Shown: piece after piece, positions 3,374 to 46,569 of the stretch | Numbering within the stretch: position 1 is the first letter of the stretch | Layout of the letters: each line of letters begins with the position of its first letter | Origin: Cystobasidiomycetes sp. EMM_F5 | Taxonomy: Eukaryota | Assembly (NCBI GenBank): GCA_051047955.1 | Contig: JBPGPT010000004.1 | Span: 682,001 to 746,000, forward strand | Length of the DNA stretch: 64,000 nucleotides | Reading direction: 5' to 3' | Made by a program: the position numbers and the translations under genes | The notes under the pieces: model-generated | Seen by the model: the letters and a program-made list of their open reading frames with translations, nothing else | The model's database searches: none | Told to the model about the DNA's origin: nothing

Positions 3374-3467
3374 ATGTCTGTAGAACTGCACCCATCGACC
3401 CAGCTGGGCTTCCACCGTCAGTGGGATCCAGATTATCGGATTGTAATCACGGCTGACGGGACTGCAA

Positions 3468-3507
<40 letters not shown>

Positions 3508-4813
3508 GGACATTATAGGCCCACTCACGCAGCTCGTAAAGCGGACACTGACCATCAGCAACACCAACACCCAGCCAGTCGCATTCAAGGTAAAGACGAC
3601 GGCCCCGAAGCAGTACTGCGTCAGACCAAACAGCGGTCGCGTTGAGCCAGGCGAGCGCGTCGAGGTGCAGGGTGAGGGAGTCGCATTTGAATATCGTGCC
3701 GTAAGTGCTGACGTTCTGATGTCTCGTTCCGCCCTCGCAGTCCTGCTGCAGCCTATGCGCGAGGAACCTCCCAATGGGACAAAATGCAGAGACAAGTTTC
3801 TCGTCCAGTCGGCAGTCATAAGCCCAGATCGCGAGACGAGACCATTACAAGAGCTGGTGGGTGCTACGCATGCTTGTACTGCTGCATGCGCGCAGACTGA
3901 CGAGATGCCGTCATTGGTGCCTTGGCACATCCCATCCCTGCGCCGCGCCTGGCTCGCAGTGGTCTACCATAGAAGCCGAATCAAAGGCAGGAAGAGAGGG
4001 TGCAATACACGAACAGAAGATCCGCTGCGTCTGGCTGCCAGTGCTGACCGAGGACGCTTCAGCAGACCAGCAGGCCCATAGTCCAGTCGTGGGACAGAAC
4101 ACCGCTCTCGGCAACAGCAGCCCCGTTCAGCAGTACGATACCGTCCGCCAACATCCTGGCGATGTGTCAGCATTCAATGATGCGTCGGAAAAGTCGATCA
4201 ATGGTAGAAACGACTCACCTACCCCAGCCTACTCCGCCGCAGCCACTGGCGATTCCCATGTCGCAGCTGTTCTGGAGCCAAAGTCTGTGGGCGAGACTAT
4301 TGCTGCTGCAGTCCCTAGCACGCAAACTGTCAAGGACGTTGCCTCGAACGCTGCTGCCACAGTTTCGAACGCTGCTGCAACAGCTGCTACTACAGTGTCA
4401 ACAGCTGCCTCCAACGCAGCGGCCTCGGTCGGTCTAACAAAGGGCGCATCTTCGTCAGGAATAAATACATCGCCGTTGCCATCATCCGTACCAGCAGAGA
4501 CTGCCAAATTACAGCAAGAGTTGCTTAATGTTCGAGCGGAGATTGAGAGACTGCGCGCATCTCTGCGGGAGAAGGAGAACGAGCTGTCGGCCGGTCTACG
4601 GCAGAGAAACATTCCAGGCGTCGCACCTGGGTCCACAAAAACGTCTGCTATCTCTGGCGGACAAGTTGCCGTCGCTGCTCAGGAAGGAGTTCCCCTGCAG
4701 ATGGTTGGTGCTCTGGTTGCCGCGACCTTCTTCTTCACCTGGTTAGCATCCCTCGATATGTGACTACGACTTTGTGACTGAGTATGCTATCGCATGACAG
4801 GCTACTTTTCTGA
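3374..4813 (+). CDS. SCS2: VAMP-associated ER membrane protein (VAP/Scs2): MSP domain, coiled coil, C-terminal TM
   Basis: AFKVKTTAPKQYCVRPNSG MSP signature and CRDKFLVQS. Introns 3417-3518, 3672-3740, 3857-3959 and 4742-4800. Ends VGALVAATFFFTW|LLF*. Confidence 0.93.
3468..3506 (+). repeat. (ACG)13 microsatellite inside intron 1 of SCS2
   Basis: Perfect trinucleotide run read directly from the sequence. Confidence 0.95.
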
Positions 4814-8189: not shown

Positions 8190-9351
8190 TTAACCGAAGT
8201 TCATAGCCATCAGCTGCTTAGGGTATCTGTCACCAGCAACATCTGCAAATGACACTCATCAGTACATCAAGACACGATCTCGAGAATGCCATCGAACGTA
8301 CCGGCCGCTTTCACGAGTTTGGTAATCTCGTCGACTTCCTCTTTCGAGAGCTTGACGTTCACTGCTTCGATACATTCCTTGACACCCTCCGGCCGTGTAG
8401 ATCCAGGGATTGGGTAGATGAGCTGTCAACGAAATACCGAAATGAGCTCAACAATGTTGTATGAAATGAGAATGAAGATGTCTGTGAAGACGCTCACGCT
8501 GTTTTGTGCAATCTCCCAGGCTAATACGACTTGTACACCGCTAACATTCTTCTTTGCTGCAACCTCGCGCAACTTTTCTGCGAGCTCGAGGTTCTTTTCG
8601 ATGTTTCCCGGCTGGAATCTTGGACTGTGCTTGAGATGATCACCCTCGGGTATATCATCGTTTGACTTGATTTTTGGATTCATCATGCCTCTTGCGAGAG
8701 GACTGTATGCAGCGATGGGGATACCTAGCTCTGTGCATGCCTCGAGGACTCCATTGTGCTCGATGTCGAGCGAGAACGGTGAGTACTCAACTTCGACAGC
8801 AGCGACTGGTCCAACCTTTGCAGCCCGTCGAATCGTATCGGCAGAGCACTCCGACAATCCAATATCCTTAAAATGCCCTTCATCTCGCAGTTTAAGGAGG
8901 GTCTTCATGGTATCTTCGATTGAGACCTTCTTGTCTACTCTGGCCATCTCGAACAAATCCATCTTTTTGTTCCCTCCCAGGAGTTTGTTGATGTTTGTTA
9001 CCGATGTGCGGAGTGCTTCTTCAGATGCATCAGGCTGCATCTTTGCCATACCTCCTTTGACGGAGAGGTACGTCTTTACAGCGTACTCTGGATACTGCGC
9101 ATAGAACCTTCCGAGCAGCTTCAGACCGAGCTCTGGGTCAGGTTGTCCGTAGAACTCTCCGCTGTTCAGCATGGTGCACCCGCCGTCGACTGCAGTCTTG
9201 ATAGCCTCAAAGGCCTGCTCGTCTGGTGTCTGCTGCGGCTTCCATGTCCTGGAAGGGACTTGGGTCAGCGCATATCATGTCTGTGTGCACTTGCTGCCAC
9301 GCACAGGTTCATGAGACCGTAGCCTACGCGATGGGATGTCGGGATGGGCAT
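8190..9351 (-). CDS. Aldo-keto reductase, pyridoxal reductase (Plr1/YakC-like) family, 3 introns
   Basis: MPIPTSHRVGYGLMNL|TWKP.., LNSGEFYG, LSVKGG, DLFEMARVD, IGLSE, VEVEYSPF, AYSPLARG, PIPGSTR, DVAGDRYPKQLMAMNFG*. Confidence 0.92.
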
Positions 9352-43438: not shown

Positions 43439-44374
43439 CTAATCCTGCTCCTTGTTGAGCCAATCGATGCCGTTGCGCGTCTTGGCCTCGAGGCTCTTGT
43501 ACCACATCTGGCACAAATTCGTCAGGGCAGACTGTGCCGACGGATCCTGGAGAATAGCCTGTAGCGAGCTATGGCTTGGGGCATTCTGCGCAAACGAAGC
43601 AATGTAGTTGAGAAAGTTCTTGGCGCACTTTGCAGCAATGACGAGTCGGTCGCTTGAAGCAGCGTCCGTCTTTGGATGGATCACCATCGTCCCATTGTTG
43701 GAGGGCAGCGAACTTGCGACACTCGCAGCCTGTGCCTCCACTACTTGTAGCGTCTCGCACATGATACCGATGTGCGCAGTAGTGTTGGCCTCCTGTGAGG
43801 ACAGACCAGCAGTGCCCTTCAGCTTGAAGATCGCAGAGGGTTTCTCATTCTTGAGGCTGATGCACGCGATGCGGGAAGCATAAGAGTCAGTCGCGGGTTG
43901 AAAGAACACACATCCCCAGCCTTACATGCCCAACAATTGCCAGTCGGGCTTGTTGGCCCACTGCAAATGAACGCTAGCGGCGTATCCATCCGGGAAAGGT
44001 ACTGGTTTAGATTACGCGCATCTTTCAGCTGTGAGCAGAGACCCCAACTTGATGTCGCGCCTCACCAGCTCCGGTCAAGAAGACAACGATATGGCTGTGT
44101 GGGGCGGGTCAGAACAAGATTTCGTTACGGTATGCATCGTCCGTCGCTCACCTGCGCAACACATGCATCCAGTCAGCCTTTCATTCTCAATATGTCTAGT
44201 CTCGCTTTCGCTTGCTTGATGGCGTCGGCCTGCGGTATCGTAAAGGCATATCGAGTCTGGTCAATCTGCTGGACGTCGGTCTGGGCTATGAAGGTCAGCT
44301 CAAACGCGCTCCTTAGTCTAACCGCTCTATGCACTCACCTGCACCAGCCGACCAGCTACTATCAGCCCAAACAT
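43439..44374 (-). CDS. OPI10: Hikeshi/Opi10 (DUF775) Hsp70 nuclear import carrier, multi-exon
   Basis: Spliced: MFGLIVAGRLVQ|TDVQQID..DAIN|HIVVFLTGA|VPFPDGYAASVHLQW..WQLLGI|LKNEKPSAIFKL..AHIGIMCE..NFLNYIASF..WYKSLEAK. Confidence 0.92.
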
Positions 44375-44551
44375 TGGAAAGTGGGCATGTATGCAAGCGC
44401 AAAGGTGCATGAATGACCGTTTGGCATGACGGGACTGCCCCCACATTGACACTTCACTCGTCGTCTCTTACACTGCAATCATCTACCACAACTACTGCTC
44501 TACACACTTTCTGGCTGCGACTAACGTAAGCGCCCATTCTATCGCCTAAAC

Positions 44552-46569
44552 TCACGGTATCCGATTCGTGTCATTCATTGAACGCTGTTTCGACAACAGC
44601 GGTTTTGTCTCTCGACTCTGCCCTGAAGATGATATTGACGTAGTGCGCGTCAATGCTGGAATACTGTTCATGCCGAAATAGCCGTCGAGGGGAGTGTTCT
44701 TCCCAGATGACTGGCAGCCATCACCCAAAGGGGAGGGCGAGAAGACAAGCTCGGGTAGCTGAATGTGAGGGACTTGCATCGGTGTATATCGTTGCGCCTG
44801 AGGCAACGGAGTGGAGACCAGACTCGGTACCAGCACGTCGCCGACGTTGAGCACAATCTGCAGAGAGCGTACGCCCCGCCGAGCCGACAGCGGTGCTCCA
44901 GTTGCTGCCGTCGAAGTTTCGACTGTGAATTGTGGTTCATTGTGCGCTTCTTCTGGTCCGGCTTTCGATGCAGCTGCAGAAGCAGACTTGCTGCGGGCAT
45001 TGCGAAGGATGTTGACGCCTCGACGAAGAAATAAGGCCGAGGCGATACAGCCGAATCTGCAGTCAATCGGAAATCTGTATTAGAGGCGAGCTCAAATGTT
45101 TCTCGTCTCTTGCATGCTTACCCTGTGGACAATCCCAGTTCGCCCAATATCGTGATGGGTCCTGCTCTCGGATCGCTCAAAATTCTATAACCCATGGCTG
45201 CCTTGGTCGTCGCGAGCGCGCTGAACGTACATCACCAAAGTCAATACGATCTATGTACCTTCGTGAAGTAGTAGCACTCACCACCAGCACAGAGTGAAAA
45301 TGGAGAATGTCAACATTTCCAGCCACACTAAACGGCTGTTGCGTCGCAGTAGTTCGCGTCGAGAAATGGATCGGTGCAGACCAGCGGGAAAACCGACGCT
45401 TTCTGCGGCTGAGATTGATTTCCGCTGCACAGTGCGGATTAGACTGTCATATAAACTAGACCGGCGATCCGGCAGATCATGAGCTTCCCGCCATACAGGT
45501 TCCAGTACTTTCTCTTGACGCGCGACTGGCGAGCCAGCGAGCACATTGTTGGATTCCTTCTGTTTGCCCAGCAGCGATAGCAGTAATGACCCATATATGG
45601 CGTATACGACCCAGCACAAGCCATAAGCAATTGCCCACATTCCCCAAGATGCTTGGTAGAAGGCAGAAGCAATGTCGAATGCCGCATTAAGCGCATCTGT
45701 AGCTTCCGTTATCAGAGGGTCCCCTGGACTGAGGTGCATTTCTCGACCGGCTGTCAGGAAGCTATCAGCCAAAGGCTTCTTGTGCTTGTTTTCCAAACAC
45801 ACCTGCAATTGCTGCGAGAGCGTTGACCCTGCTTTGCATGTCAGGCCAAACATTGACCACGGCCATTTGCGCCGCAAACAAGAGTACCGGAGGTACCCAG
45901 CAGACTAGATTGAGGGTGATTGGCTTCAGGCGGAAGAAGCGTGTAACAGCGCATGTAGTGTTTGGAGTCAGGTGCCAGGCGAAGGCATTGGCGAATGCGC
46001 TCAGCCAGGCTGTGGCCAGACAAGCACGTAGGTCAGCCTCGACCCGACATGAAGCCTGACTTTGGACGGCCTCACCCCACAGTAGCAGCGGCATCGGCAG
46101 GAGTAAAGAAAGCTGTCCATACGGAAATATCATTAGATGCGGTAGCAATAATGTGTTTTTCTACAAGTGACACGAACCCTCTGGATAGAAGCTCTGCTGG
46201 TACCGGATCGTAGGTAGATTCCCAGCACAACCTCGCATGCTATTGAGATAATAGCAAAGATAGTAATCATTGCTGGTGCCAGCACAGGACTGTGTGGCAG
46301 AAAATATGTGCCATCGCGTCGCTCGAGTCGCTTGACTAGAATGCGTTGATCGGGTCTGGCCAGTTGCACAGCGAGACTCGCTAGCGAAAGTAACTGGAGA
46401 TAGTCCACATTCAGCTGCTATACACTCAAGCTGTTTGTAGTCTGTCACTCACGACTGCGAAAGCACTAAGGCCAATCAAGACGTTGTTGCCAAGCATGAT
46501 GCCATGATTGAAGTTCTCTACGCCGTCCTGGAGGACGGTCGGATTATTGGGCGAATCCTTGTCTGACAT
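44552..46569 (-). CDS. Hypothetical multi-pass membrane protein, multi-exon
   Basis: Several hydrophobic segments (AMITIFAIISIACEVVLGIY, LNLVCWVPPVLLFAAQMAVV, WAIAYGLCWVVYAIYGSLLL, LVWLEMLTFSIFTLCW) joined by GT-AG introns, then a Ser/Pro-rich tail. No family recognised. Confidence 0.6.

Follow-up and report, generated by a model that had tools for sequence, protein, structure and literature searches.

A candidate zero-length exon between two putative short abutting introns, the first with a GC donor, in a fungal Hikeshi/OPI10-like gene

The second and third exons of a Hikeshi/OPI10-like gene on the minus strand of the window, the 64,000-nucleotide stretch of DNA that was analysed, are separated by 121 nt. 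As judged from the letters of this stretch, the 121 nt are on balance probably two abutting U2-type introns around a zero-length exon, which would mostly be removed separately. The arrangement is most likely constitutive and not regulatory.

Hikeshi is the carrier that imports Hsp70 into the nucleus under heat stress. The gene model, apart from the interruption itself, comprises the following features.

43439..44374, minus strand: Hikeshi/OPI10-like gene from ATG to stop codon, five exons, 207 aa once spliced
44339..44374, minus strand: exon 1 (MFGLIVAGRLVQ), from the gene model and the alignment
44281..44338, minus strand: intron 1, 58 nt, with donor GTGAGT, branch motif GCTGAC and acceptor CAG
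44216..44280, minus strand: exon 2 (TDVQQIDQTRYAFTIPQADAI and the first two bases of an Asn codon), at PF05603 positions 9-29
44066..44094, minus strand: exon 3 (third base of the Asn codon, HIVVFLTGA and first base of a Val codon), from the model and the alignment
44002..44065, minus strand: intron 3, 64 nt, GTGAGG..CAG, without a CTRAC branch motif
43926..44001, minus strand: exon 4 (PFPDGYAASVHLQWANKPDWQLLG..), at PF05603 profile positions 41-66
43857..43925, minus strand: intron 4, 69 nt, GTAAGG..GACTGAC..CAG
43439..43856, minus strand: exon 5 with the stop codon, holding the end of the N domain and the Hikeshi C-terminal domain, from Pfam

The Pfam scan was run exon by exon. Thereby, the Hikeshi C-terminal domain (PF21057) was found on the last exon with E = 3.9e-08 and 33.5 bits (cut-off 27). 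The exon pieces of the N domain (PF05603) fell on profile positions 9-29, 41-66 and 68-129, colinear over the exons, with scores of 13.7, 26.2 and 24 bits, each of which singly lies below the 27-bit cut-off. A protein search with the last exon yielded 14 proteins with E ≤ 1e-5 among 50 candidates, and those of the 14 that are not fragments carry both PF05603 and PF21057. With the window's own 82-aa ORF call set aside, the best homologue is 60% identical; only one homologue is named, a DUF775 protein from the basidiomycete yeast Cystobasidium minutum (53% identity). These matches mark the window as fungal nuclear DNA, probably of a basidiomycete yeast lineage.

Some details of the gene and its surroundings are recorded here in their own right. 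In intron 1 (44281-44338, minus strand) a TAG 9 nt past the branch A is skipped, and the second AG, a CAG 5 nt further on, serves as the acceptor. The frame-preserving acceptor context reads ..TTCATAGCCCAG/ACC; splicing at the TAG would leave 5 extra nt and break the frame. The boundaries of intron 3 (GTGAGG..CCAG) are set by the conserved ..LTGAVPFPDGY.. join; this intron holds branch look-alikes only, namely CTCAC (with two AGs before the used acceptor) and GTAAT or CTAAA near the acceptor. About 180 nt upstream of the Hikeshi ATG, a consensus donor GTGAGTT (44549-44555, minus strand) stands at the end of an open frame belonging to an upstream neighbour gene on the same strand (..KQRSMNDTNRIP). 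Either the Hikeshi gene and this neighbour lie very near each other, or a 3'-terminal intron of the neighbour is located at 44549-44555.

Exon 2 ends with ..GCCATCAA at 44216, and exon 3 starts at 44094 with CCATATCGT, also given as CCATATCG. According to the first-pass annotation, the ..DAIN/HIVVF.. join needs the excision of exactly 44215-44095, and this was confirmed by alignment: residues 1-83 of the resulting spliced protein align without a gap with P0003, a full-length, transcript-like protein, and with P0009, likewise full-length and from Cystobasidium minutum, both of which carry PF05603. The further claim that two full sets of splice signals, the first with a GC donor, meet at AG/GT within these 121 nt was borne out as well, every named letter being found at its named minus-strand coordinate.

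44152..44215, minus strand: unit A, 64 nt, with GC donor GCAAGC (44215-44210), GCTGAC (44177-44172) and CAG (44154-44152)
44095..44151, minus strand: unit B, 57 nt, with donor GTGAGC (44151-44146), TCTGAC (44113-44108) and CAG (44097-44095)
44146..44154, minus strand: pivot CAG/GTGAGC, acceptor adjoining donor, the candidate zero-length exon, read from the sequence

Both units (64 + 57 = 121 nt) are sized like the other introns of the same gene (58, 64 and 69 nt), and the branch A stands at position 43 in unit A and in unit B alike. In unit A this is 44173, 21 nt before the end of the unit, and at the level of motifs the acceptor is the first AG after the branch, with none in between. In unit B it is 44109, 14 nt before the end of the unit, whose donor GTGAGC is preceded by CAG. 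Within the intervening sequence a 3' splice site (CAG, 44154-44152) lies directly beside a 5' splice site (GTGAGC, 44151-44146). At the outer boundaries, which are fixed by protein conservation, the ends of the U2-type GC-AG kind are present (GC at the 5' end as the predicted donor, AG at the 3' end).

Other ways of accommodating the interruption were rejected. For a missing micro-exon, PF05603 leaves 11 positions (30-40), which correspond to the 11 residues of exon 3 including its two split codons. As for an alternative GT donor, the stretch that follows exon 2 contains no GT as far as the in-frame TGA of unit A, and the GC donor is therefore unavoidable. Only a single T-to-C change parts GCAAGC from a standard GTAAGC donor, as would fit an assembly or sequencing error for GT, or a decaying gene with an intron that is no longer properly spliced. 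Such a reading is nevertheless scarcely credible, since the five exons are intact and colinear with those of relatives, with no stop or frameshift, and canonical introns occupy the other three positions. In fungi, moreover, a GC donor followed by AAG at +3 to +5 is functional, and the class is documented there (PMC7072748); the tandem anatomy would stay even with a GT.

The donor of unit A departs from the consensus by a C at +2 and an A at -1. This consensus is CAG/GTRAGT, and the donor of unit B together with its preceding CAG matches it at eight of nine positions. Typical GC donors are offset by a good exon end, that is, by an AG before the donor. Compared with U2-type GC-AG introns, a rare but regular class, unit A has the same GC at +1/+2 and AAG at +3 to +5, and its branch is normal and its acceptor an AG, whereas the exon here ends in AA, which makes the donor weaker than usual. 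Among fungal splice-site pairs GT-AG accounts for 98.7%, with GC-AG as the main non-canonical class (PMC7072748). Automatic predictors often miss GC donors, and as this gene model cannot do without one, an automatic annotation of the Hikeshi gene is likely to be wrong or cut short.

In order to place these lengths and signals against the background of the window, intron-like candidates were collected from both of its strands with a crude motif finder (GTRAG, CTRAC, first AG). Thirty of the resulting 77 candidates clustered at 46-87 nt, and the other 47 were evenly distributed over 97-298 nt, as chance combinations would be. Judged by the cluster at 46-87 nt, the 121-nt interruption is about twice the normal intron size, while each of its halves is normal. 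The short and long candidates per donor dinucleotide numbered 24 and 88 for GC, 27 and 83 for GA, 15 and 69 for GG and 30 and 47 for GT. Short GC-donor candidates in the window were no commoner than those of the control dinucleotides, and no convincing coding support was found for any other GC-donor candidate in it; the GC donor of unit A is thus a rare event within the window too. An ORF-joining filter intended to give clean intron lengths in the window left 55 candidates without a clear separation.

Two further stretches of the window were noted along the way. At 9249-9294 (minus strand), 46 nt with GC-AG-like signals (GCAAGT..GCTGAC..CCAG) lie upstream of a long frame that starts with QTWKPQQTPDEQAFEAIKTAV; as an intron this stretch is unsupported, only four codons being open upstream. 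At 3409-3528 (minus strand), about 14 GTC triplets (GTCGTCGTC...) stand within a 120-nt stretch with intron-like ends (GTGAGT..CTGAC..AG). This run may be an intron microsatellite or, on the opposite strand, a coding repeat of acidic or serine-rich character.

Splice sites in fungi are paired with their nearest compatible partners (intron definition), and one complex intervening sequence is removable by either one or two reactions (PMC7138796). As donor, branch and acceptor are thus matched by proximity, most transcripts would lose units A and B separately, in two reactions and in either order. With unit A out first, ..ATCAA would be joined to GTGAGC and the donor of unit B would stay intact; with unit B out first, ..GCGCAG would be joined to CCATAT and the acceptor of unit A would stay intact. 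Since each excision leaves the signals of the other unit intact, either order should be equally possible. A minority of transcripts may lose all 121 nt at once, through pairing of the GC donor with the branch and acceptor of unit B. The GC donor would be used in every route, and the final mRNA would be identical by every route.

The main competing explanation is that the 121 nt are one ordinary, rather long U2-type GC-AG intron, excised in a single step via TCTGAC and the acceptor at 44095. The internal CAG/GTGAGC and GCTGAC would then stem from chance or drift and be idle or splicing noise. We regard this explanation as a realistic possibility, albeit a less probable one. As the same mRNA results, the protein requires no two-step route; GC-AG is, as given above, the main non-canonical class; and in C. 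neoformans internal or nested events within larger introns are reported to be often invisible in polyA RNA, so that internal sites can be minor (10.1101/224170). However, both halves of the 121 nt are of normal intron size, and the GC donor is far weaker than the internal one, which lies at the usual distance from the branch of unit B, so that skipping it would break intron definition. This strong donor, 43 nt upstream of the unit B branch, would be expected to be used. Within a long intron it would act as a harmful decoy unless the upstream piece ended with AG exactly there, and selection would keep the abutting AG because the internal donor would otherwise yield unproductive transcripts.

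How readily such a pivot arises by chance was estimated by permuting the 90 interior bases of the interruption in 400,000 trials, with the outer donor and the last 25 nt kept. An internal AG/GTRAG with its own branch motif and both halves of at least 40 nt was counted as a success, and in a relaxed version the donor was loosened. The strict internal pivot was recreated in 639 shuffles (0.16%) and the relaxed-donor pivot in 1,832 (0.46%). An AG abutting the donor together with a CTGAC 21 nt upstream is thus found in only 0.16-0.46% of shuffles, which argues against a single intron with accidental internal sites. Furthermore, the two strands of the window together hold 11 AGGTRAG sites, and CTRAC occurs 8-42 nt upstream of only one of them, the Hikeshi pivot. 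The pivot is clearly unexpected for one window, and a few chance cases are expected across very many windows; the statistics support two units but do not prove them. Folding of the 121-nt RNA revealed no structure bridging the GC donor to the branch of unit B: units A and B fold separately (MFE -24.1 kcal/mol, z = +0.76; 152 of 200 shuffles at least as stable).

An indirect view of the interruption in a relative comes from P0011, a bacterial-style ORF call on a eukaryotic contig which reads through introns and is 54% identical over the last exon. Because its HVVVFLTG (exon 3) is preceded by Ser, fitting AG/C, and before that by another 27 residues that bear no relation to exon 2, P0011 has an intron at the same position. 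According to back-translation, a protein-level test on a single relative with 54% identity, no AGGTRAG can be encoded within the 83 nt that precede exon 3. Within those 83 nt GTRAG is possible only 32 nt from the acceptor, too near to be the donor of that intron, and one CTRAC is possible, 28 nt from the acceptor. Two placements of the upstream boundary were rejected: a shifted-frame 'PQA' near the ORF start as exon 2, where the preceding residues misfit F.F.IP, and the only AA/G(T/C) donor position that the P0011 residues permit, which would delete three conserved residues. Homologue spacing would place the P0011 donor on a C. The P0011 intron is probably longer than 83 nt and longer than P0011's own introns 3 and 4, and there are weak indications that the exact architecture with a B-like 57-nt unit is not conserved there, an upstream pivot or a non-consensus donor being possible. 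An intron seemingly longer than 83 nt, whose last 83 nt lack a consensus pivot, speaks for single-step removal, as a long single intron may be the ancestral state.

Hikeshi intron positions vary by lineage, and P0011 has positions 2, 3 and 4 in common. The position of intron 4 (after ..LLG) is also interrupted in the metagenome loci L002 (1501-2250) and L003 (787-1536), with one read-through insertion each, and in the ORF P0015; none of the three has introns at Hikeshi positions 1-3. From these sequences the intron 4 position looks widely shared, and positions 1-3 look absent from the distant genomic sequences examined. P0015 was the only sequence obtained from an exon-2 profile search for read-through ORFs, in which three candidates were scored; it is distant, and its exons 1-4 are contiguous. 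A degenerate DNA pattern for the N-terminal peptide was searched in metagenome contigs, in genome contigs (prokaryote) and in viral contigs. The metagenome matches comprised seven loci, all of which encode Hikeshi according to tblastn and are 30-56% identical to P0003 or P0009, i.e. not close relatives. The IN/H position is uninterrupted in all seven, and five of them may be transcripts. The same pattern gave one chance match in a Paracoccus contig among the genome contigs and none in the viral contigs. A search of metagenome contigs with the C-terminal alignment gave 133 pattern matches, none of which was confirmed.

With regard to the origin of the two units, a tandem duplication was rejected for want of detectable similarity (global score of A against B -1; 10.1% of 2,000 shuffles align as well). 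That units A and B bear no sign of duplication is a further point in favour of a single intron. An introner-like multiplying element was likewise rejected, as no other copies of unit A or B were found in the window beyond chance matches of 8-14 nt. One unit may have been gained by insertion at the other's junction, or else an old long intron may have acquired internal sites, as was proposed for Lipomyces (PMC7138796).

The first-pass annotation had further proposed an NMD switch on a heat-shock import factor. The premature stop on which this proposal was built was confirmed, since retention of unit A does expose the predicted TGA (..LRMKG*; translation ..AIKQAKARLDILRMKG*); retention of unit B gives ..AIK*. 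The regulation and the link to heat shock gained no support beyond these stops, which are normal for short fungal introns. In its full form the proposal amounts to a regulatory valve, in which the weak GC donor would make unit A rate-limiting, and loss of unit B only would lead to the TGA, to NMD and to a stress-responsive control of Hikeshi. Beside the stops found in both units, the departure of the GC donor from the consensus at -1 and +2 is consistent with it, and NMD-coupled splicing is reported from yeasts, namely for prp10 in S. pombe (10.1101/226894). We nonetheless consider such a valve unlikely: stops of this kind are usual when a short fungal intron is retained and say nothing about regulation, the 121 nt showed neither a conserved structure nor an additional motif, and any GC-AG intron would give the same 'valve' without a second unit. 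Very unlikely is the boldest combination, in which the 64 + 57 nt would be the smallest zero-length-exon unit yet, removed in two obligatory steps; a new intron would have been inserted exactly at an existing splice junction (e.g. by reverse splicing at a spliceosome-bound junction), and retention of the rate-limiting GC unit would serve, via NMD, as a stress-responsive valve on Hikeshi, the import factor of Hsp70.

If the two-step route is true, zero-length exons would also occur between introns of ordinary size in protein-coding genes, and not only in unusually long introns. This would bear on intron gain beside existing introns and on the annotation of 'double-length' fungal introns. Furthermore, the Hikeshi interruption would offer a compact natural substrate for studying how the spliceosome handles an acceptor and a donor without an exon between them.

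Ratchet points of Drosophila and mammals subdivide introns of tens to hundreds of kb and are thought to aid accuracy over long distances. The Hikeshi pivot resembles them in its form (polypyrimidine-AG/GTRAGT) and in the 5' splice site that would be regenerated after the first step, whereas a stretch of 121 nt has no need for long-distance accuracy. The earlier view that AG/GT recursive sites occur only in very long introns of animals is out of date, given the cases from S. pombe (10.1101/226894) and C. neoformans (10.1101/224170). In S. pombe a zero-length exon is described in the 336-nt intron of SPNCRNA.445, among 'two instances' in all, and its splice sites are conserved in other Schizosaccharomyces (10.1101/226894). 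In BOT1 of C. neoformans a zero-nucleotide 'pivot point' splits a 375-nt intron into 210 + 165 nt (10.1101/224170). The Hikeshi interruption shares with these cases a 3' splice site touching a 5' splice site inside one apparent intron, with an own branch for each part, and all of them belong to fungi with short introns and intron-definition splicing. C. neoformans is, moreover, a basidiomycete, as is the host of the closest named Hikeshi homologue, Cystobasidium minutum. The two published cases differ in that they were shown by spliceosome profiling, junctions, branches and RT-PCR, whereas the Hikeshi case is known from sequence alone. Their introns are 3 times longer, whereas the Hikeshi units (64 and 57 nt) are of ordinary size. 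Unlike in the published cases, the first Hikeshi unit has a GC donor, and the site lies in a coding region, in codon phase 2.

Stwintrons, including the 'stwintron sensu lato' of Lipomyces, are similar in that two U2 units are removed by consecutive reactions with a one-step alternative possible (PMC7138796). In the strict kind, however, the donor, branch or acceptor of an external intron is split by an internal one, and the external intron gains function only once the internal one has been excised. In the Hikeshi gene all six signals are intact and contiguous and the units abut instead of being nested, which places them outside the strict stwintron definition. Neither unit interrupts the other and either order would work; 'abutting U2 introns excised by recursive splicing' are a recognized class of the stwintron literature and are classed apart there (PMC6616335). 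In the literature searched we found no report of an abutting fungal intron pair of about 60 nt each, and the supplementary tables of the profiling preprints may list more. The class itself, i.e. zero-length exons and abutting introns, is already known in fungi; new here would be the size (64 + 57 nt, both normal introns), the location within coding sequence and the GC donor of unit A.
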